NCBI GenBank assembly: GCA_049700215.1
Contig: JBNAVT010000031.1
Coordinates: forward strand, 1 to 21,790
DNA from: Thermoproteota archaeon
GTDB lineage: Archaea; Thermoproteota; EX4484-205; JAAOZP01
DNA: 21,790 nt
Direction of reading: 5' to 3'
Position numbers and translations under genes: made by a program. The notes under the pieces were generated by a model. It was not told the DNA's origin, did no database searches, and saw nothing but the letters and a program-made list of their open reading frames with translations. Of the stretch, positions 947-16,858 are shown piece after piece (within the stretch, counting starts at the first letter, position 1; each line of letters begins with the position of its first letter).

Positions 947-967
947 GTAGTTGGGTGGCCTCCGTTT

Positions 968-1047
968 AGGAGGTGTGTCGTGCACACATGATGCGTAACG
1001 CCCAAAGGGGGCGAGACTACCTGCGTTCCAGCGCAAGCAACACCTCT
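968..1047 (+). ncRNA. Candidate cis-regulatory structured leader RNA (BCAA leader motif, leuA copy)
   Basis: P1 GAGGUGU 970-976 / ACACCUC 1040-1046. Hairpin CGCCC 999-1003 / GGGCG 1009-1013. Hairpin UGCG 1022-1025 / CGCA 1032-1035. Homologous to 14695-14787 (-) upstream of ilvB. Confidence 0.7.
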
Positions 1048-1103: not shown

Positions 1104-2642
1104 ATGGTTTGGAGAGGATACCTTACTGAGACGAAAATACCTGACAAGGTGGTTCTTTTCGACACTACTCTGAGAGACGGCGAGCAGACCCCGGGAGTTG
1201 CGCTTACGCCCGAAGACAAGCTTAAGATAGCGAGACAGCTGGACTTGCTTGGAGTACCCGTATTAGAGGCAGGCTTCCCGGCGACATCGCACGGCGAGGA
1301 GGAGGCTATTAAGCTAATAGTCAGAGAAGGATTGAACGCGGAGATAGCCGCCCTATCCAGATGCGTGAAGCAGGATATTGAGAAAGCCGCTTCAACCGGT
1401 GCTGGAAGAATACATCTCTTCATAGCGACCTCGGATATTCATTTGAAGAAGAAGCTCCAGATAAGCAGGGATGAAGCTATACGCAGAGCAGTTGAATCCA
1501 TCGACCTAGCTAAATCCTATGGTGTTAAAATAGAGTTTTCAGCTGAGGATGCGACTAGGACAGGCATTGACTTCCTAGTGGAGTTCTACAGGGCGGTTGA
1601 AGAGGCAGGGGCAAGCATGGTTGATATTCCGGATACTGTAGGCGTCGCTACACCCTTAGCCATGAGAGAGATTGTTAAGAGGGTTTGCGAAGCCCTGAGG
1701 ATCCCGGTTGCTGTGCACTGCCACAACGACATGGGTCTAGCGGTTGCGAACACGCTGGCGGGCATCGAGGGGGGAGCGGTCGAGGCTCACGTAACCGTGA
1801 ACGGGCTTGGCGAGAGAGCAGGCAACGCGAGCCTGGAGGAGGTGGCGGTTTCCCTGAAAGTACTATACGGCGTGGAAACAGGCTTGAAGTTTAAAGAGAT
1901 ATACAACACCTGCAGGCTGGTTTCACTCATAACAGGCATAGCAATACCTGTGAATAAGCCGATAGTCGGGGAAAACGCTTTCTCCCATGAGAGCGGAATC
2001 CATACTCACGGCATAATAGCGTCTCCCGAGACATACGAGCCTATAAACCCTGAGTTCGTCGGGGCTAGGAGAAGACTGGTGGCTGGGAAACACGCAGGCG
2101 TCCACGGGATTTCAGCGCAGCTTGAGGAAATGGGTTACAGGCTGAGCGAGGAGGAGTTGAGACAGATCCTTAAAATAGTTAAGGATATTGGCGACAAGGG
2201 TAAGAAGATTACTGACGCTGAACTCGCCTCGATAGCTGAAAGCATCATAGGATACGGGGTTGGCGAGAATAACCGTATTGAGCTTGAAGAGCTTCTGGTA
2301 GTTACAGGCTTGAACACTACTCCCACTGCAGCGATAAAAGTAAAGTGGGGCGAGCAGGCTTGGAGGGGTGCTGAGTTCGGCGTTGGGCCGATAGATGCTT
2401 CGATGAAGGCCGTAAGCAGAATCCTCGGCGATCTGGTTAAGATAAAGCTTGAAAGCTTCCGGCTGGAGGCGATAACCGGAGGTACGGACGCGCTTGCGGA
2501 GGTAACTGTCAGGGTTTCAGACGAGGAAGGCCGGAGCGTTACTGCGAAAGGCTTCAGCGAGGACATCGTGCTGGCTGGGGTTTACGCGATACTGAACGGG
2601 GCGAACAGGCTTCTTCAAATCAGGAAGAGGGCTGGGAGATGA
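1104..2642 (+). CDS. leuA: 2-isopropylmalate synthase (LeuA/CimA family, with C-terminal regulatory domain)
   Basis: DTTLRDGEQ, EAGFP, HLFIATSDIH, HCHND, GLGERAGN, HESGIH and GVGPIDA motifs. SD AGGAGGGGTG at 1090-1099. Overlaps leuC by ATGA. Confidence 0.92.
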   Translation: MVWRGYLTETKIPDKVVLFDTTLRDGEQTPGVALTPEDKLKIARQLDLLGVPVLEAGFPATSHGEEEAIKLIVREGLNAEIAALSRCVKQDIEKAASTGAGRIHLFIATSDIHLKKKLQISRDEAIRRAVESIDLAKSYGVKIEFSAEDATRTGIDFLVEFYRAVEEAGASMVDIPDTVGVATPLAMREIVKRVCEALRIPVAVHCHNDMGLAVANTLAGIEGGAVEAHVTVNGLGERAGNASLEEVAVSLKVLYGVETGLKFKEIYNTCRLVSLITGIAIPVNKPIVGENAFSHESGIHTHGIIASPETYEPINPEFVGARRRLVAGKHAGVHGISAQLEEMGYRLSEEELRQILKIVKDIGDKGKKITDAELASIAESIIGYGVGENNRIELEELLVVTGLNTTPTAAIKVKWGEQAWRGAEFGVGPIDASMKAVSRILGDLVKIKLESFRLEAITGGTDALAEVTVRVSDEEGRSVTAKGFSEDIVLAGVYAILNGANRLLQIRKRAGR

Positions 2643-3904
2643 CTGGTTTAACAGCGATACAGAAAGTTATATCGAGGAAAACAGGTAGGCCTCGGGTGGA
2701 GGCGGGTGAAATAGTTGAGGCGAAAGTGGATTTCCTGATGCTGCACGAGGTTACTGGGCCGCTGGCTGTTGAAGAGTTTGAAAAGATCTCCGGGAGGATC
2801 TGGGACCCCAGCAGGGTTATTGTAGTTTTCGACCACGATACTCCCCCGAGCACGATAGACCTAGCCAGCCAGATGAAGAGGATGAGGAGCTTCGTTAAAA
2901 AACACGGGGTAAGCAACTTCTTCGAAATAGGTAGGGGAGGCATAGCGCACCAGGTTCTCTTTGAAGAAGGCTTCGACACGCCAGGCTCCCTGATAGTGGG
3001 CGCTGACAGCCATACTTGCACCGCTGGAGCAACCGGCGCAGTTGGAATAGGAGTCGGCTCCACAGATGCTGCCGTAGTCCTAGCCACTGGGGAAATATGG
3101 CTAAGAGTCCCTGAAACACTTCTCGTCGAGGTTAAGGGGAGGCTTGGGAAAGGTGTTTTCGCGAAGGATGTTGCTTTAAGCATCGTCGGGACGATCGGCA
3201 GCAGTGGCGCAACATACAAGGCGCTGGAGTACTCCGGCGAAACAGTAAGCCTGATGACACTGTCTGAGCGGCTTACCCTGGCGAACCTCTCGGTGGAGAC
3301 TGGTGCTAAAACCGGGATTGTTCAAACAGACTCTAAAAGCATCGAGTATGCTGAGCTCTACGGAAGAGGCAGCGGGTTCCTGGAAGTCAGGAGTGATGCT
3401 GACGCAGACCTGGAGAAGATCGAGGTGGATGCTTCGCGCCTTGAGCCTGTTGTAAGCGTGCCGCACAGCGTGGACAACGTTAAGCCCGTCACGGAGGTTG
3501 AAGGACTGGAGATAGACCAGGCTTTCCTAGGCTCCTGCACAAACGGGAGGGTGGACGACCTACTAGTAGCCTTCAGAATCCTGAGGAACAGGAGGGTCGC
3601 GCCGGGTGTGAGGCTTGTAGTGAGCCCAGCCTCAGTCAAGGTGTATGAGGAGGCTTTGAGAAAAGGCGTTATCGAGGAGATTGTGAAAGCGGGCGGAATC
3701 GTGACCAGCCCTACGTGCGGCGCATGCCTAGGAATGTCTAGAGGTGTTCTCGCTGAGGGCGAGGTTGCGATTTCAAGCAGCAACAGGAACTTCATAGGCA
3801 GGATGGGTGATAAGAGGAGCAGGGTGTTCCTGGCTTCTCCAGCTACTGTCGCCGCGTCGGCGGTGGAGGGTAAAATAACCGACCCGAGGAGGGTGCTGGC
3901 TTGA
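2639..3904 (+). CDS. leuC: 3-isopropylmalate dehydratase large subunit
   Basis: DH, GADSHTCT, FLGSCTNGR, CGACLG and SNRNFIGRMG aconitase-family motifs. Operon context. Confidence 0.93.
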   Translation: MTGLTAIQKVISRKTGRPRVEAGEIVEAKVDFLMLHEVTGPLAVEEFEKISGRIWDPSRVIVVFDHDTPPSTIDLASQMKRMRSFVKKHGVSNFFEIGRGGIAHQVLFEEGFDTPGSLIVGADSHTCTAGATGAVGIGVGSTDAAVVLATGEIWLRVPETLLVEVKGRLGKGVFAKDVALSIVGTIGSSGATYKALEYSGETVSLMTLSERLTLANLSVETGAKTGIVQTDSKSIEYAELYGRGSGFLEVRSDADADLEKIEVDASRLEPVVSVPHSVDNVKPVTEVEGLEIDQAFLGSCTNGRVDDLLVAFRILRNRRVAPGVRLVVSPASVKVYEEALRKGVIEEIVKAGGIVTSPTCGACLGMSRGVLAEGEVAISSSNRNFIGRMGDKRSRVFLASPATVAASAVEGKITDPRRVLA

Positions 3905-4398
3905 AAATAAGCGGCAGGATTATTAGGCTTGGAGACAACGTTGACACCGACGTGATAATACCTGCAAGGTACTTGGTGACTCATGATGCCGACGTTCTCG
4001 CTAAGCATGTTTTCGAAGACTATTATCCTGAGTTCAGGGTGAAGGCTGCTGGCGGAGCCATAGTGGTTGCCGGGGAGAATTTTGGACTGGGGAGCTCCAG
4101 GGAGCATGCGGTAATAGCGTTGAAACACTCAGGTGTGAAAGCGATAGTCGCCAAGTCTTTCGCAAGAATCTTCTATAGAAACTCTATCAACCTTGGTCTC
4201 CCAGTCCTTATCCTCAGGAGTAAAGAGGGTTTCGACAGGCTTAAGGATTGGGAGGAGGCTGAGCTTGACGTTGCCAACGGGGTTTTAACGATTATTAAAA
4301 CCGGGGAGAAGTTTTCCTGCGATAAAATGCCTGAATTCATGCTGAAAATAATAGAGGCGGGAGGTTTAATAAACTATTTTTTGAAGAAGCGTGAGTGA
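3901..4398 (+). CDS. leuD: 3-isopropylmalate dehydratase small subunit
   Basis: DNVDTDVIIPARYLVT (IPMI-like YLV, not homoaconitase YLRT), NFGLGSSREHA and SFARIFYRN motifs. Confidence 0.93.
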   Translation: MKISGRIIRLGDNVDTDVIIPARYLVTHDADVLAKHVFEDYYPEFRVKAAGGAIVVAGENFGLGSSREHAVIALKHSGVKAIVAKSFARIFYRNSINLGLPVLILRSKEGFDRLKDWEEAELDVANGVLTIIKTGEKFSCDKMPEFMLKIIEAGGLINYFLKKRE

Positions 4399-4462: not shown

Positions 4463-5311
4463 TTGCTGCGTCGGAGAGAGGCGGTTAGGAGGGAGGCAGT
4501 TGGCAGTTACTCGTGTGAACAGTGTGGACACCAACTCAGCCCTGAATACAAGTTCTGCCCAGTCTGTGGAGCGCCGCGGAAAGGAGTCTCTTATGTGAAG
4601 AGGGTTTCAACAGGCAACCCGGCTATAGATGAGATCCTGGAGGGCGGTTTCGAATCCGGTAAAACATACCTGCTCGCCGGCGAGGCTGGAACCGGGAAGA
4701 CGATTTTCAGCCTACAGTACCTCATATACGGGGCTAAGAGCAATGAGCCCGGTATCTATGTGACGATAGACGAGAGGCCGGAGATGCTTGTGAGAGACGT
4801 GAGGAACTTCGGCTGGGATCTGCAGCCACTCATAGAGACTAGGAAGCTCGCAATCCTCCCGGTTAGAAGATACTTCACCTCTAAAATGTGGGGCAGGGAA
4901 ATGGACGCTATAGTTAACAACATAATAGAGGAGCTTGACAAGAGGAGGAGGGAAATAGGAGCCAGGAGGCTCGTCATAGATCCGATAGCCCCGTTGGTGA
5001 CTACCTACTCGAACGAGGTTGCCTGGGTTAGAGAGTACATCAGGAGCCTCATATTCTCAATCGAGGAGAAGCTCGGCGTGACCACCGTGATAACCTCAGA
5101 GGTTCCCACTGGGGAGAACATGATGAGCAGGTATGGTGTTGAAGAATTTCTGGCGAGCGGCGTCATAATACTCTCACTATCCAGAATCGGCAACTCCATC
5201 ATAAGGACAATGTTCATAAGGAAGATGCGCTGGACCGCGGTGAACCCGACGATCTACAGGTTTGAAATAGAGAGGGGCCGTGGAATAGTTCTTAAAGAAC
5301 CATTAAGCTAG
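4463..5311 (+). CDS. Single-domain KaiC/RAD55-family ATPase with N-terminal zinc ribbon
   Basis: CEQC-x10-CPVC ribbon, RVSTG-x3-D, Walker A GEAGTGKT, Walker B RLVID, YGVEEFLASGVI and KMR arginine finger. Confidence 0.9.
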   Translation: MLRRREAVRREAVGSYSCEQCGHQLSPEYKFCPVCGAPRKGVSYVKRVSTGNPAIDEILEGGFESGKTYLLAGEAGTGKTIFSLQYLIYGAKSNEPGIYVTIDERPEMLVRDVRNFGWDLQPLIETRKLAILPVRRYFTSKMWGREMDAIVNNIIEELDKRRREIGARRLVIDPIAPLVTTYSNEVAWVREYIRSLIFSIEEKLGVTTVITSEVPTGENMMSRYGVEEFLASGVIILSLSRIGNSIIRTMFIRKMRWTAVNPTIYRFEIERGRGIVLKEPLS

Positions 5312-5877
5312 GTAGGCAGCCTGGTTCCGCATCTGAAGCAGAATTTGTAGCGCGCATTGTTTATAGCTCCACACTTAGGACAGGTTTTAGTAGCTCCTGC
5401 ACCGCCAGCCGCCTCCTCGGTGGCAGGCCGCTGCGTAGCAGCCACGGTTTCAACCTGCTCTGGTTCCGCCTCCTCGTATTCAACAGGCTCCTTGAAAGAA
5501 GGCTGCGCCTCAGGAACAGTGGCTGCGCCACTAGTTGGAGCAGCCTGAGCCTCCGGCTCCCTCGGCGCATAGACAGGCGGCTTCGCTGAAACCTGCTCCC
5601 TAACCTGGGCCTTCGGCTCCTCACGGGTTTCGACAGCAGGCTTAGCCGGCACAGGGGGCGCGGCTGGAACAGTAACTTCCTTCTTGAGTATGACGATGTC
5701 TTCAGCAGCGTCAACCTCGCTCCAGATGAACTCCATCTCCCTATTGTCTCTACCGACAACAACTATTCCAACCAGGTTCTCGCCCAGGACGAACCCTATG
5801 TCTTTCACAGTGCCGACATACCTGCCTCTCTTATCGTAAACCTGGAGGCCTATTATCTTGTCTTTTCTAATTAGCAA
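5308..5877 (-). CDS. PRC-barrel domain protein with Pro/Ala/Glu-rich linker and C-terminal zinc ribbon
   Basis: IIGLQVYDKRGRYVGTVKDI...WSEVDAAEDIVIL is a PRC barrel. About 95-aa low-complexity linker, then CPKC-x10-CFRC. Confidence 0.85.
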   Translation of the reverse strand: MLIRKDKIIGLQVYDKRGRYVGTVKDIGFVLGENLVGIVVVGRDNREMEFIWSEVDAAEDIVILKKEVTVPAAPPVPAKPAVETREEPKAQVREQVSAKPPVYAPREPEAQAAPTSGAATVPEAQPSFKEPVEYEEAEPEQVETVAATQRPATEEAAGGAGATKTCPKCGAINNARYKFCFRCGTRLPT

Positions 5878-8788: not shown

Positions 8789-9802
8789 CTAAATCCTTAG
8801 ACTGTTTTCCACGCTTGGACGTACGGGGTGGGAATCGTAGCCGAGCCTCTTAAGCTCCCTGGAGAACTCCTCTGGGAAACCGTGGACTGTGAAAACCTTC
8901 TCCGGACTGGTTTCCCTCACGATTTCGATCAAGCCTTCGAAATCAGCGTGATCGCTAAGGGGGAAAGCCTTGTCTACGCCAAGCGTCTCACAATACCAGT
9001 TGAAAAGCGACCTGCCTGAGAAGCTTATGAAGACGGCGTCATACTTCCTCTTGATCAGCTGCATGAAAGCATTCCTGCCTGAGACATTAGGATAGTAGAG
9101 AGCCCAGGAGCCGTTGGGCAGCTCTGAGGACTGGGGCGTGAAAACCTTCTTCCCCCCTATTCCTATTGAGAAGAGCCTGTACACGTTGTTATACTCCGCT
9201 ATTGACGGGGAAACGTATGTTTCGACAACGCCTTGGAGAACAGGATCCAGGATCATTTGAAGATGTTGAGACTTCCCCAGTGGATAACCCATGAGAACCA
9301 TTGGCCTGCCCCTCCGGACTGTTTCACTCACGTAGTCAACAATCTCCCTGATCAGCTGCCTCCTAGGGGGGAAGACAAGGCTGGGACGCCCATAGTTCGA
9401 CTCTATTATCAGGGTGTGGACCCTTGGGAAGCATTGCCTAAGTATGCCTTCAACAGGGGAAGTGTTAACGTCCCCCGTGTACAGTACCACACCCCTATCG
9501 GTTTCAACGAGGAGCGCTTTAGACCCTAGAATGTGGCCTGAGTCGAGGAGAGTGAAAGGGTCGGGTTCAACACGTTTAACCTCAAGCCCCCTGAGCGTTG
9601 AAAGCAGCAGGGTTTCCTCTGAGCATACTGCTAAAGCCCTCCTCGCGTCCGACTTACCAAGATGGTCGAAGTGAGCGTGAGATATGAAAAGATAGTCCAT
9701 CGGCTCGAAGCCCGTTTTCAGAAACGCCTCTCCTTCTCTGAAGCATAGGGTTGCGAAACGGTCCAGCTTAATCGAAAAACTCCTCGGGCATGCTGCAGAC
9801 AT
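8789..9802 (-). CDS. Metallo-beta-lactamase/beta-CASP nuclease (COG1236-like)
   Basis: SHAHFDH, GHILGS, YTGD, LIIESNYG, GYPLGKSQ, LSDHADF and VHG motifs. Confidence 0.85.
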   Translation of the reverse strand: MSAACPRSFSIKLDRFATLCFREGEAFLKTGFEPMDYLFISHAHFDHLGKSDARRALAVCSEETLLLSTLRGLEVKRVEPDPFTLLDSGHILGSKALLVETDRGVVLYTGDVNTSPVEGILRQCFPRVHTLIIESNYGRPSLVFPPRRQLIREIVDYVSETVRRGRPMVLMGYPLGKSQHLQMILDPVLQGVVETYVSPSIAEYNNVYRLFSIGIGGKKVFTPQSSELPNGSWALYYPNVSGRNAFMQLIKRKYDAVFISFSGRSLFNWYCETLGVDKAFPLSDHADFEGLIEIVRETSPEKVFTVHGFPEEFSRELKRLGYDSHPVRPSVENSLRI

Positions 9803-12970: not shown

Positions 12971-14644
12971 CTACCTCCCCACGATAACGCTGTCGAGCGG
13001 GGAAGCTGGAGGAACCATTGGGAAAACATTATCCTCCCGCTCAACAATCACGTCGATCACAGTTGCCTCATCCTGCTCCAGAGCAGTCTCGAGAGCATCT
13101 TTAAGCTCGCTTATCCTCGTCACCTTAAAACCCCTGGCGCCGAAGCCCTCTGAAACCCTAGCTATGTCAGCCCTACCCTTCAGGTCCACGGCGATATACC
13201 TCCTGCCGTAGAAGAGCTCCTGCCACTGCCTAACCATACCCAGGAAATAATTGTTGAGAACCACGACTATGATCGGCAGGTTATAGTCGACTGAGACAGG
13301 AAGCTGGTTGCAAGTCATGAAGAAGCTGCCGTCCCCAGCAATGTCGAAAACACGGCTCCCGGGGAAAGCCGCCTTAACCCCGATTGCAGCCGGAAGCCCG
13401 AAGCCCATTGTCCCCAGGCCACCGGAGGATATGAACTGTCTTGGGCGCCTAACTGTGAAGTGGAGTGAAGCATACATCTGGCACTGGCCCACCTCGGTCG
13501 TAACGAAATCCTCAACCCTAACGTAGTCGCTAAGAACCCTGACGGCAGCACTAGGATCCACGGGGACAGCATCATAGTCGTAAAAGAACTCTGACTCCCT
13601 CCTGAGCTGCTTCACCCTCTCACCCCATGCGCCAGCCTTACCCTTCTGGAGAAGCCTGAGAACCGCCTCGCGAACCCTGTTTAGAACCTGCTTAGCGTCA
13701 CCGGCGATGCCTAGGTCTGGCTTAAGCAGCTTCCCGATCTCAGACCTATCTATGTCCACGTGTATCTTCCTCGCCCTCGGGGCGAAGCCGTTCAGCTTGC
13801 CCGTAGTCCTGTCGCTGAACCTCATGCCTACTGCGAGAACCAGGTCGCTCTCCTGAACAGCCTTGATCGCGCCAAGCCTCCCGTGCATCCCGAGCGTCCC
13901 CAGGGACAACGGGTGGTTCTCAGGAATGCTCCCCTTACCCATGAGCGTCGTCGCCACAGGAGCGTTCAGAAGCTCAGCCAAGGCGATGAGCTCGCTGGAC
14001 GCGCCTGATATTATTACTCCTCCCCCGGCGATGATCACAGGCCTCTCAGCCTCAACCAGCATCCTGGCGGCGGAGAGAATCTCCTCGTCAGAGGGCGTGG
14101 GCGGCTCATACGAGTAAACGTAGAAATCATCATCAGGTTCACCCTCCATGAGCTGAACATCCCTGGGAACATCTATGTGAACAGGCCCAGGCCTTCCGGA
14201 CAAGGCTATTTTAAAAGCGTTCTCGAGAGCAGAGTTAAGCTCATTCAAATCCCTGGGCAGAAAGTTCATCTTAGTCAACCCTATCATCATCGAGAAAATA
14301 TTAGCCTCCTGGAAACCGTCGTAGCCTATGAGCGGCGTCGCAACCTGGCCGGCTATGCTTAAAACCGGCGAGGAATCCAAGTAGGCGTTAGCAATTCCCG
14401 TGGCAAGGTTGGTGGCGCCAGGGCCTGATGTCGCGACGACGACGCCCATCCTGCCGGTTGCCCTAGCATAGCCGTCAGCCATGTGGGCAGCACCCTGCTC
14501 GTGCCTAGTCAGAATGAACTCGATGCTACTCTCCTTATACAGCTCGTCTAGGAACGGGAGCACAGCGCCACCAGGCACTCCGAAGATGGTTTTAACCCCG
14601 TTCTCCCTCAGCTTCTCCACTAGCAGTCTAGACCCTGAAACCAT
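12971..14644 (-). CDS. ilvB: Acetolactate synthase large subunit, biosynthetic type
   Basis: FGVPGG, RHEQGAAHMADGYAR, TSGPGATN, GMHG, RFSDR, SGGLGTMGFG, GDG..NN TPP motif and LGMVRQWQ. SD GAGGTG at 14656-14651. Confidence 0.96.
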   Translation of the reverse strand: MVSGSRLLVEKLRENGVKTIFGVPGGAVLPFLDELYKESSIEFILTRHEQGAAHMADGYARATGRMGVVVATSGPGATNLATGIANAYLDSSPVLSIAGQVATPLIGYDGFQEANIFSMMIGLTKMNFLPRDLNELNSALENAFKIALSGRPGPVHIDVPRDVQLMEGEPDDDFYVYSYEPPTPSDEEILSAARMLVEAERPVIIAGGGVIISGASSELIALAELLNAPVATTLMGKGSIPENHPLSLGTLGMHGRLGAIKAVQESDLVLAVGMRFSDRTTGKLNGFAPRARKIHVDIDRSEIGKLLKPDLGIAGDAKQVLNRVREAVLRLLQKGKAGAWGERVKQLRRESEFFYDYDAVPVDPSAAVRVLSDYVRVEDFVTTEVGQCQMYASLHFTVRRPRQFISSGGLGTMGFGLPAAIGVKAAFPGSRVFDIAGDGSFFMTCNQLPVSVDYNLPIIVVVLNNYFLGMVRQWQELFYGRRYIAVDLKGRADIARVSEGFGARGFKVTRISELKDALETALEQDEATVIDVIVEREDNVFPMVPPASPLDSVIVGR

Positions 14645-14694
14645 TTAAAACACCTCTCGCAAACAGCCTTTTGAAAACTCTTTCTTCCCCTATT

Positions 14695-14787
14695 GGAGGT
14701 TGAGCTTGCAGCGGGGCCTCTGCAGTTGGTGGACGGTGTCCCGCCCCCTTGGAGCGTGAATACTATGGTACACTCAGCGCACCTCCT
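14695..14787 (-). ncRNA. Candidate cis-regulatory structured leader RNA (BCAA leader motif, ilvB copy)
   Basis: P1 GGAGGU 14786-14781 / ACCUCC 14700-14695. CGCUCC-AAG-GGGGCG 14756-14742. GGAC-ACC-GUCC 14741-14731. UGCAG/CUGCA 14724-14707. Homologous to 968-1047 (+). Confidence 0.7.
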
Positions 14788-14811: not shown

Positions 14812-14826
14812 TATATTAATCTTTCC
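14812..14826 (-). promoter_or_regulatory. BRE + TATA promoter of ilvBNCD; predicted TSS about 14789-14787
   Basis: Minus strand GGAAAGA followed by TTAATATA (14819-14812). Confidence 0.72.
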
Positions 14827-16784: not shown

Positions 16785-16858
16785 GCGGCGCTGGTCTAGC
16801 CTGGTATGACACCAGCCCCCCAAGCTGGGAATCCCGGGTTCAAATCCCGGGCGCCGCA
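16785..16858 (+). tRNA. tRNA-Gly(CCC), intronless, CCA not encoded, atypical C33
   Basis: Acceptor GCGGCGC/GCGCCGC + A73. D arm GTCT-AGCCTGGTA-TGAC. Anticodon stem CCAGC/GCTGG with loop CCCCCAA (anticodon 16819-16821). T arm CCGGG-TTCAAAT-CCCGG. Confidence 0.95.

Follow-up and report, generated by a model that had tools for sequence, protein, structure and literature searches.

The locus and its two leaders

The window, by which we mean the whole 21,790-nucleotide (nt) stretch of DNA analysed here, is one contig (C31) of the genome of an uncultured hot-spring archaeon of the phylum Thermoproteota (2,089,643 bases in 85 contigs, 94.6% complete). DNA matches were mostly labelled as hot-spring metagenomes, no RNA run was among the matches listed for the locus, and all of the genomes compared in this study are metagenome-assembled. 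The window carries two operons for branched-chain amino acid (BCAA) biosynthesis, leuACD on the forward strand and ilvBNCD on the reverse strand, each preceded by a putative promoter and a short leader. The two leaders share a set of sequence blocks that a preliminary description of the window had taken for a structured, untranslated RNA and a candidate riboswitch. Here, they are described as a conserved cis element in which a Shine-Dalgarno (SD) sequence, SD1, stands ahead of a short upstream open reading frame (uORF), while a segment that repeats the 16S rRNA tail (the anti-SD) has two potential partners, SD1 and the SD sequence of the main gene, SD2. The features concerned are as follows.

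1104-2642, 2639-3904 and 3901-4398, + strand: leuA, leuC and leuD (Pfam)
14644-12971, 12964-12476, 12431-11448 and 11440-9806, - strand: ilvB, ilvN, ilvC and ilvD (Pfam)
939-946, + strand: TATA-like box TTAATATA of the leuA operon (from sequence), with a purine-rich AAAAG resembling a transcription factor B recognition element (BRE) just 5' of it
14812-14819, - strand: TATA-like box TTAATATA of the ilvB operon (from sequence), with a purine-rich stretch 5' of it
968-975, + strand: SD1 AGGAGGTG, the putative ribosome-binding site of the leuA leader ORF and 5' arm of the outer stem (16S complementarity, alignment)
14780-14787, - strand: SD1 AGGAGGTG of the ilvB leader ORF (16S complementarity, alignment)
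988-1062, + strand: leuA leader ORF (uORF) of 24 codons, MMRNAQRGRDYLRSSASNTSIRYC followed by a stop (translation)
14690-14773, - strand: ilvB leader ORF of 27 codons with a GTG start 6 nt past SD1, (M)YHSIHAPRGRDTVHQLQRPRCKLNLQ followed by a stop (translation)
998-1017, + strand: 20-nt core of the leuA leader, codons (AA)C GCC CAA AGG GGG CGA GAC, within which lies the core hairpin CGCCC (999-1003)/GGGCG (1009-1013)
14738-14757, - strand: 20-nt core of the ilvB leader, with the hairpin CGCTC (14756-14752)/GGGCG (14746-14742), the G-run of which can alternatively pair with a downstream CCGTCC
1021-1023, + strand: invariant in-frame Leu codon CTG (alignment of 30 leaders)
1040-1047, + strand: anti-SD ACACCTCT, a copy of the 16S tail that can pair with SD1 (outer stem) or with SD2 (RNAalifold, duplex energies)
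14695-14700, - strand: anti-SD ACCTCC, read as AAC CTC C, the Leu codon CTC standing three codons before the stop
1055-1089, + strand: terminator-like hairpin ACTGTT-GAAA-AACAGT, its loop coinciding with the uORF stop TGA (1060-1062), and 3' of it the T-tracts TTGTTTT and TTTT (minimum free energy, MFE, structure)
1090-1106, + strand: SD2 AGGAGGGGTG and the leuA start codon ATG (1104-1106)
14642-14656, - strand: SD2 GAGGTG (14656-14651) and the ilvB start codon ATG (14644-14642)

The shared blocks reported for the two leaders were recovered as described. An identical 10-mer, TTAGGAGGTG, lies at 966-975 (+) and 14789-14780 (-), the 20-nt core begins 32 nt after the start of this 10-mer in both leaders and is identical at 17 of its 20 positions, and an ACCTC block follows at 1042-1046 (+) and 14700-14696 (-). 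The third block, a hairpin framed by CTGC and GCAAGC, is likewise found in both window copies, but was not conserved in the leuA leaders of congeners, where 35.7% of cells were paired, no better than in slid or shuffled controls. A degenerate pattern of the core, allowing up to 3 mismatches, matched these two sites alone in the window, and none of 100 shuffled sequences gave two or more matches. Elsewhere, the leuA and ilvB leaders of one genome diverge, retaining SD1, the start codon, the core, CTG, the anti-SD and SD2.

The TTAATATA box is separated from AGGAGG by 29-32 nt in both window copies and is invariant in all congeneric leaders, where it lies 29-34 nt 5' of GGAGGTG. On the usual geometry of archaeal promoters, the BRE/TATA spacing would place the start of the transcript at or just 5' of the SD-like sequence, with predicted transcription start sites (TSSs) at approximately 968-970 (leuA, +) and 14789-14787 (ilvB, -).

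The interval between the TATA box and SD1 (947-975 on the + strand; 14811-14780 on the - strand) contains short inverted repeats in many leaders, such as CCTCC-GTTTA-GGAGG at 961-975, although their sequence and register vary by species. The mean MFE of this region was -10.0 kcal/mol, compared with -6.8 kcal/mol for shuffled sequence. The repeats lie mostly upstream of the predicted TSS, and in several leaders their 3' arm is SD1 itself. Either they would act at the DNA level, or the TSS would lie further upstream and SD1 could be masked in the transcript.

Distribution of the element

A blastn search recovered both leaders from congeneric genomes, as a rule on the same contig and separated by about 13.7 kb. 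Thirty distinct congeneric leaders (15 leuA-type and 15 ilvB-type) make up the alignment (A3) on which the covariance model R1 was based. A covariance-model search of the window's own genome (2,089,643 bases, E ≤ 10) returned exactly the two sites in the window. Across the genus, R1 identified sites in all 17 genomes, 32 strong ones in total (E ≤ 5.8e-9) and always 5' of leuA or ilvB; each genome has two, apart from G001 (70% complete) and G016 (82% complete) with one each. The proposal of a pathway-specific cis element is thus borne out, its occurrence being restricted to the leuA and ilvB operons in all genomes of the genus. As there are only two genomic sites, the element is not a repeat and its 'regulon' consists of the two operons. 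A dispersed repeat or miniature inverted-repeat transposable element was rejected, given two copies in the window's own genome and the lack of any other meaningful blastn match to either leader.

Beyond the genus, R1 found nothing convincing in 9 genomes of the order's other three families (one match at E = 0.13). A 19-nt pattern of the core, allowing at most one mismatch, matched in 20 of 401 genomes of the phylum, comprising 16 of the 17 in the genus, one genome of a sister family (G017, discussed below) and three others with one mismatch each. The last three were counted as background because a reversed control pattern matched in 11 of the same 401 genomes. A metagenome scan with the core pattern yielded at least 117 stretches, nine of which were flagged by their context and six of which were true leaders (L190, L223, L229, L247, L264 and L282); the remaining matches were due to chance, and the scan added little new diversity. 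In two further genomes (G018 and G020) ilvB is preceded by another gene and lacks the leader, while no IlvB was found in family f4 (6 genomes) with the query used.

The novelty of the element with respect to described RNA families was also upheld. A cmscan of the window against all 4227 families of Rfam 15, including T-box, TPP and the BCAA-associated motifs, returned only a tRNA (16785-16858) at gathering score, and the two leaders searched against Rfam 15 at E ≤ 10 gave chance matches only (sR1, E = 5.7; Six3os1_2, E = 9.4). Similarly, neither uORF peptide matched any NCBIfam leader-peptide model at E ≤ 10.

A conserved leader ORF

While the leaders do represent a conserved cis element, their earlier description as untranslated does not agree with their sequence, since the shared 10-mer contains a perfect SD, downstream of which come a start codon and a short ORF that is conserved. 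SD1, AGGAGGTG, is an 8-nt perfect complement of the genome's own 16S rRNA 3' end, GGATCACCTCCT (G000:C73), and the GGAGGTG within it is invariant in all 30 aligned leaders. Genome-wide, GGAGGTG occurs at 297 sites; at 110 of them a start codon follows at a distance of 3-10 nt, and 37 of these 110 lead into ORFs of at least 100 amino acids. In 22 of the 30 aligned leaders, GGAGGTG is followed at 6 nt by a GTG that opens 20-27 codons, and GTG is found at the same distance in two further congeneric leaders (L085 and L076). In the other eight (leuA clade 1, which includes the window copy) this GTG has been lost and an in-frame ATG is found 10-12 nt after GGAGGTG, with a short GUGUGU/ACACAC-type hairpin between SD1 and the AUG.

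The short ORF is open in every leader examined, with a length of 20-29 codons. Its frame is free of stops in 30 of the 30 aligned leaders, compared with stops in 12 and 29 of them in the other two frames, and it is also open in the two further congeneric leaders, five metagenome leaders and two sister-family leaders. At least 131 substitution events have occurred in the uORF columns, and 3-4% of the possible substitutions would create a stop, giving a P of approximately 0.007 for zero stops; this value is only rough because the end of the ORF is itself set by the first stop. The indels within the ORF are +9 nt (ilvB-type relative to leuA-type, between GAC and CTG), -6 nt (L018) and -3 nt (ilvB clade 3), and the sole indel that is not a multiple of three, -2 nt in L011, lies upstream of the ATG of that leader. 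The frame has also been retained through three independent rearrangements of the start codon.

Read in this frame, the 20-nt core is the codon string GCY NNA AGG GGG CGR GAY, encoding A-x-R-G-R-D. R-G-R is in frame in 38 of the 39 leaders examined, sister family included, the exception being RRR in G001, and every one of the 30 aligned leaders has CTG in frame. A TAC to TAT change (L264) leaves Tyr at codon 2 intact, and Ser at codon 3 is encoded by AGC in leuA-type leaders and by TCT or TCG in ilvB-type leaders. Changes in the CGR and GAY codons of the core are synonymous, except for GAA (Glu) in L025. The third positions of GAY in both leader types and of CGR in the ilvB type (diversity 0.45-0.51 in each case) are as free to vary as the silent sites of the main genes (0.35-0.36, measured in these genomes over codons 1-60 of leuA and ilvB), which speaks for a translated leader; the corresponding values are 0.00 for CGR in the leuA type and 0.00-0.13 for GCY.

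Folding and potential for alternative SD pairing

Of the earlier claim that both leaders fold in the same way, the outer stem stands, as it is present in both MFE structures; the core hairpin does not, as the G-run of ilvB pairs with a downstream CCGUCC and not with CGCUC. The leuA MFE structure comprises the outer stem, the core hairpin and a UGCG/CGCA hairpin (z = -2.55), and that of ilvB keeps the outer stem (z = -2.18). Just two helices were retained by RNAalifold across the 30 elements: the outer stem (GGAGGU/ACCUCY) and the core hairpin (CGCYC/GGGCG). Together they have 11 pairs, for which 98.5% of cells can pair, against 41-65% with slid partners. The suggestion that substitutions in the core are held in check by pairing received no support from covariation, with changes on both sides in 0 of the 11 pairs and shuffles equal to the observed values, since one strand of each helix is invariant.

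The anti-SD has two potential partners. The full-length consensus of the leuA leaders contains an 8-bp SD1:anti-SD stem. In that of the ilvB leaders, the partner of the anti-SD is instead SD2; the G-run is matched to the downstream CGUCC, and GUGUAC, in the region of the start codon, takes up the 3' half of SD1. Duplex energies over the 30 leaders range from -7.2 to -14.8 kcal/mol for anti-SD:SD1 and from -7.5 to -13.4 kcal/mol for anti-SD:SD2, SD1 being the stronger partner in 27 of them; for the leuA leader of the window the values are -13.4 and -10.9 kcal/mol, respectively. When leuA positions 1030-1110 are folded alone, CACCUCU pairs with SD2 in the MFE structure.

The anti-SD itself is read as ACC UCU in leuA-type leaders and as xAC CUC C in ilvB-type leaders, and lies after the stop in ilvB clade 3. 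That ACCUCY occurs in different frames, and even past the stop, indicates that it acts as an RNA-level signal, and it reproduces the 16S tail. The uORF stop is always within 17 nt of CCUC (at +17, +7 or -11), such that a terminating ribosome of the usual footprint would sit on or against the anti-SD. T-tracts are present 5' of SD2 in most, though not all, leaders (by eye), and the terminator-like hairpin at 1055-1089, with its U-tract, is kept only in leuA clade 1.

Several other RNA-level candidates were rejected. The core sequence GGGGCGAG has an 8-bp complement (including one G-U pair) in the anticodon-stem/variable-arm region of tRNA-Leu(CAG) and tRNA-Leu(UAG), the second-best duplex among 20 tRNAs. 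This was judged to be a coincidence of a G+C-rich sequence in a folded region, and tRNA mimicry or T-box-like pairing was rejected as an explanation. A -1/+1 frameshift at the G-run, a C/D-box and a K-turn, each considered by eye, were unsupported across homologues.

The leader in a sister family

One genome outside the genus, G017, belongs to another family of the order and has an IlvB that is 55-58% identical, preceded by a TATA box and a leader. L229 is a near-identical metagenome copy of this leader (4 differences in 220 nt). No such leader was found for leuA in G017. In the core region, 24 of 27 nt match the ilvB-type leaders of the genus (by eye); a 17-nt deletion has taken out the CGCYC arm of the core hairpin, and both the 5' SD1 and ACCUCC are absent. 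The former GTG TAC frame lacks a stop until past the ilvB start codon. New upstream ATGs, the first of them some 4-6 nt from the predicted TSS, retain the frame of the core and give MVMSMVRCTRGRYPVYQILCVL followed by a stop, with ATT CTT at the position of CTG. Because G017 keeps this frame (R-G-R-x-P-V-x-Q-[I/L]-L) without the outer stem and with only half of the core hairpin, the frame outlives the proposed fold. The leader ORF of G017 and L229 (L155:1375-1443) is probably nearly leaderless, starting within a few nt of the predicted TSS.

The last codons of the G017 ORF, AUU CUU UGC GUU CUC UGA, pair weakly with GCAGAGG in the SD2 region, in a fold that is no stabler than those of shuffled sequences.

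A proposed ribosome-dependent SD/anti-SD switch

With moderate confidence, we interpret the leader of leuACD and ilvBNCD as a lineage-specific, ribosome-dependent SD/anti-SD switch that resembles the erm leaders or the LEU element of bacteria and would be new for archaea. Translation of the leader ORF, the signal sensed and the direction of regulation are set out here as the sequence leads us to expect them. The transcript probably starts at or just before SD1, AGGAGGUG, which would drive translation of the 20-29 codon leader ORF, with the anti-SD (CACCUCY) close to where that ORF ends. The movement of ribosomes along the ORF would then determine whether the anti-SD pairs with SD1 or SD2, and thereby the translation of leuA or ilvB. 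With the anti-SD masked or engaged with SD1, SD2 would be free, while pairing of the anti-SD with SD2 would turn the main gene off. The position of the ribosome could depend on pausing at the invariant Leu codon CUG, at Val, Ile and Leu codons within or adjoining the anti-SD, and perhaps at the rare CGA or CGG codon. Read-through of the T-tract before SD2 might also be affected; the T-tracts, and the hairpin and U-tract of leuA clade 1 with the uORF stop in its loop, leave room for a transcriptional component.

The signal reported by such a switch would be the supply of BCAA-tRNAs. This is the most plausible signal in view of the invariant in-frame CTG, the invariant GTC (Val) of the ilvB-type leaders, the reading of the anti-SD as Leu CUC in 11 of 15 leaders of that type, and the I-L-C-V-L end of the G017 peptide. 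As BCAA codons are not enriched overall, it is a step that we infer.

A number of observations weigh against the SD/anti-SD switch as an account of the element. Outside the invariant core, the leader ORF carries no coding-type substitution signature. The ratio of nonsynonymous to synonymous polymorphism (pN/pS) is close to 1 in the uORF frame (1.19 for leuA, 0.87 for ilvB) and no higher in the other frames, and variable columns are spread evenly over the codon positions (9/9/9 and 6/7/7). Within the core, the silent sites of xxA, AGG and GGG have a diversity of 0.00 where 0.35 would be expected, and the second Arg is always encoded by CGA (2%) or CGG (6%), the rarest Arg codons, with AGG accounting for 56%. 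Constraints on the peptide or on translation do not by themselves explain the conservation of the core, around which the families agree at 24 of 27 nt (by eye). Just 1 Leu and 1 Ile occur among the 24 residues of the leuA uORF, unlike in classical attenuators; the 27 residues of the ilvB uORF include I, V and 3 L, and neither uORF has a run of such codons. The distance of 10-12 nt between GGAGGTG and the ATG of leuA clade 1 is long, the SD/anti-SD pairs vary one-sidedly (G-C/G-U, U-A/U-G) with no compensatory double change, and the anti-SD is degenerate in two leuA leaders (L025 and L076). Finally, a crude genome-wide look for SD-led leader ORFs ahead of long ORFs gave 30 candidates, among which there was no second convincing case, the promoter-plus-leader layout recurring only at ilvB. 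The covariation and codon tests have little power, as the genus is shallow and is supplemented by a single sister-family species. The small core hairpin is an additional RNA-level feature, as is the invariant AAGGGGGCGRGA, which the SD/anti-SD switch model leaves unexplained and which may pause the ribosome (through a rare codon and an SD-like G-run), bind a protein or ligand, or belong to an arrest peptide.

Alternative explanations

The element is best seen as a real and specific feature whose interpretation has been corrected, with a protein site, a riboswitch and a nascent-peptide sensor as live rivals to the SD/anti-SD switch. That the invariant AAGGGGGCGRGAY, together with its flanks, is bound by a BCAA-responsive regulator, either on the RNA or on the DNA just past the promoter, is unlikely. 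Such a site, analogous to the proposal for the actinobacterial LEU element or to TRAP/PyrR-type proteins, would explain a block of 12-19 nt conserved across two families beyond coding needs (24/27 nt by eye) and a regulon-like distribution over exactly two operons per genome, and the short inverted repeats between the TATA box and SD1 could also be seen in this light. However, the analysis turned up no candidate for such a protein, the block does not form a palindrome at the DNA level (T in the left arm corresponds to G in the right), the differences in sequence and register of the promoter-near repeats between species argue against a single sequence-specific operator, and the conserved frame, start and stop would be left unexplained. 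A ligand-binding riboswitch, in which the outer stem and core hairpin, together with conserved nucleotides of the junction and loop, would form an aptamer for a BCAA or pathway intermediate and the ORF would be incidental, is rather unlikely. It would accommodate the invariance that coding does not explain (the AAGG loop, GGGGGCG, the fixed silent sites of AGG and GGG, and CGA/CGG), the changes in the 5' strands, all of which are C/U opposite G, the excess of pairing over slid partners and the z-scores of both window copies; given the lack of an Rfam match, it would constitute a new class. Against this, the analysis yielded no aptamer supported by covariation (no pair changed on both sides, and a third helix paired at control level), and both the ilvB MFE structure and the full ilvB consensus assign other partners to the G-run and the anti-SD. 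One arm of the 'outer stem' is an SD and the other repeats the rRNA tail, and either is explicable alone. G017 lacks both arms of that stem as well as the 5' arm of the core hairpin, yet has kept the core and its frame, and a non-coding model does not explain the replacement of start codons or the indels in multiples of three.

The peptide itself could be the sensor, although we consider this improbable. N-A-x-R-G-R-D(-x-V/L), with or without a bound BCAA, would arrest the ribosome from within the exit tunnel, in the manner of TnaC, SpeFL and the fungal arginine attenuator peptide, and thereby set the SD/anti-SD pairing. The more specific form, in which a BCAA or keto acid together with nascent N-A-x-R-G-R-D stalls the archaeal ribosome and flips the SD/anti-SD/SD switch, we hold to be equally doubtful. 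The near-universal R-G-R in frame, extending to RGR.PV.Q[IL]L in the sister family, would fit such a sensor, as would the retention of Tyr at codon 2 and of Ser at codon 3 across codon families and the almost exclusively synonymous changes of CGR and GAY. A pN/pS near 1 would not be expected of it, nor would the Gly to Arg change within the motif in G001; the residues before the stop are not conserved, there is no likeness to any NCBIfam leader-peptide family, and because the silent sites of the conserved codons are conserved too, constraint on the peptide is inseparable from constraint on the RNA. Least probable is that the leaders have no regulatory role and represent an ordinary conserved 5' untranslated region (UTR) or promoter-proximal region, duplicated between the operons and containing a fortuitous ORF. 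In a young genus much will be conserved by descent, the silent diversity of the main genes being only about 0.35. Nevertheless, the paralogous leaders have diverged except at SD1, the start, the core, CTG, the anti-SD and SD2, the core survives in a family with an IlvB that is just 55-58% identical, and the frame has been kept through all three start-codon rearrangements, which together make this explanation very unlikely.

Neighbouring genes

Other genes in the window include argH, a thermosome subunit gene and that for archaeal elongation factor 2 (aEF-2). An ORF at 8789-9802 (-), which starts 3 nt after ilvD, has matches to a metallo-beta-lactamase fold and to RMMBL (an RNA-specificity domain); its product may be ribonuclease-like and co-transcribed with ilvBNCD, judging by its position and domains. 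The tRNA gene at 16785-16858 (+) is a tRNA-Gly(CCC), the decoder of the invariant GGG in both leader ORFs. It lies about 2 kb from the ilvB leader, which is probably a coincidence. Directly 3' of leuD is a gene for a KaiC-like ATPase with an N-terminal zinc ribbon (4463-5311, +), adjoined by one for a PRC-barrel and zinc-ribbon protein (5308-5877, -). The nearest relatives of LeuA outside the lineage, among the matches listed in a pattern-limited scan, were of the Methanomassiliicoccales type (42-47% identity) rather than other Thermoproteota; this may be an effect of the search method or the result of transfer.

Comparison with known systems

Control of amino acid operons by a leader ORF and SD sequestration is textbook in bacteria. 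In erm and cat leaders, an SD1 and a short ORF precede the main gene, the SD of which is sequestered by a complementary upstream segment, and the position of the ribosome selects the pairing; the inducer acts through antibiotic-dependent arrest of the nascent chain. The archaeal leaders likewise have an SD1 and a short leader ORF, and, as pairing potential, their main SD can be sequestered by a segment that has an alternative partner, the choice between which would fall to the ribosome. Unlike the erm and cat leaders, they are archaeal, the presumed signal is BCAA-tRNA supply, and the anti-anti-SD is SD1 itself.

IvbL, IlvL and LeuL are leader-peptide transcription attenuators of enterobacterial and corynebacterial ilv and leu operons. 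The leaders described here share with them a short leader ORF with its own ribosome-binding site 5' of BCAA operons and, in leuA clade 1, a hairpin and U-tract, but differ in having no run of regulatory codons (a single invariant CTG is all that is present) and no NCBIfam match; no antiterminator was defined, and a conserved terminator/antiterminator pair was not apparent. Archaeal termination needs no hairpin. The Rfam candidate motifs leuA-Halobacteria, ilvB-OMG, ilvH and livK are also found upstream of BCAA genes, one of them in archaea. Despite this common placement, neither they nor T-box were matched by the leaders in the Rfam 15 scan. TnaC, SpeFL and the fungal arginine attenuator peptide are metabolite-sensing arrest peptides, in which a short conserved leader peptide precedes a metabolic operon. 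The placement is the same here, whereas arrest is hypothetical and conservation of the peptide cannot be separated from that of the RNA. If the arrest-peptide explanation were true, no small-molecule sensor of the TnaC/SpeFL kind would have preceded the leader in Archaea, nor any such sensor of BCAAs; an aptamer that truly binds a BCAA and overlaps the ORF would be an equally novel alternative.

Among the papers listed in the literature searches there was no archaeal leader-peptide or uORF regulator of amino acid biosynthesis, the term 'leuA-Halobacteria' was not found, and none of the titles or abstract openings among the matches listed for Brockarchaeota dealt with RNA regulation. A ribosome profiling (Ribo-seq) study of M. 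mazei goes no further than noting that about 10% of its newly detected small ORFs are located in 5' UTRs, 'potentially representing uORFs' (PMC11456600). The actinobacterial LEU element, located 5' of leuA, is described as a uORF with a run of Leu codons and a compact structure, at the base of which Leu codons are paired with the leuA SD; a conserved pseudoknot also belongs to it, and its mechanism is debated (Seliverstov et al., 2005, PMC1262725). The archaeal leader of leuA is alike in its compactness and in combining an upstream ORF with a base stem that involves an SD, and in both cases riboswitch, attenuation and protein-binding models are all left open. Where Leu codons pair with the leuA SD in the LEU element, here the anti-SD CCUCC is read as Leu CUC in 11 of 15 ilvB-type leaders and not in those of the leuA type, and it can also pair with the uORF's own 5' SD. 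Unlike the bacterial element, the archaeal leader lacks a run of Leu codons, also heads ilvB, and showed no similarity in the Rfam scan. Membership of the LEU element is therefore not proposed, given the missing Leu run and the lack of an identified pseudoknot, for which no formal search was made.

Should the SD/anti-SD switch be confirmed, coupled, translation-based sensing of amino acid supply would exist in TACK (Thaumarchaeota, Aigarchaeota, Crenarchaeota and Korarchaeota) archaea, and the two leaders would provide a worked example of an apparent 'structured RNA motif' that is in fact a translated leader. Because SD/anti-SD chemistry is universal, the leader can be tested directly in reporters or by in vitro translation. 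The LEU element is the nearest described counterpart of these archaeal leaders, and the erm and cat leaders are the closest in mechanism.

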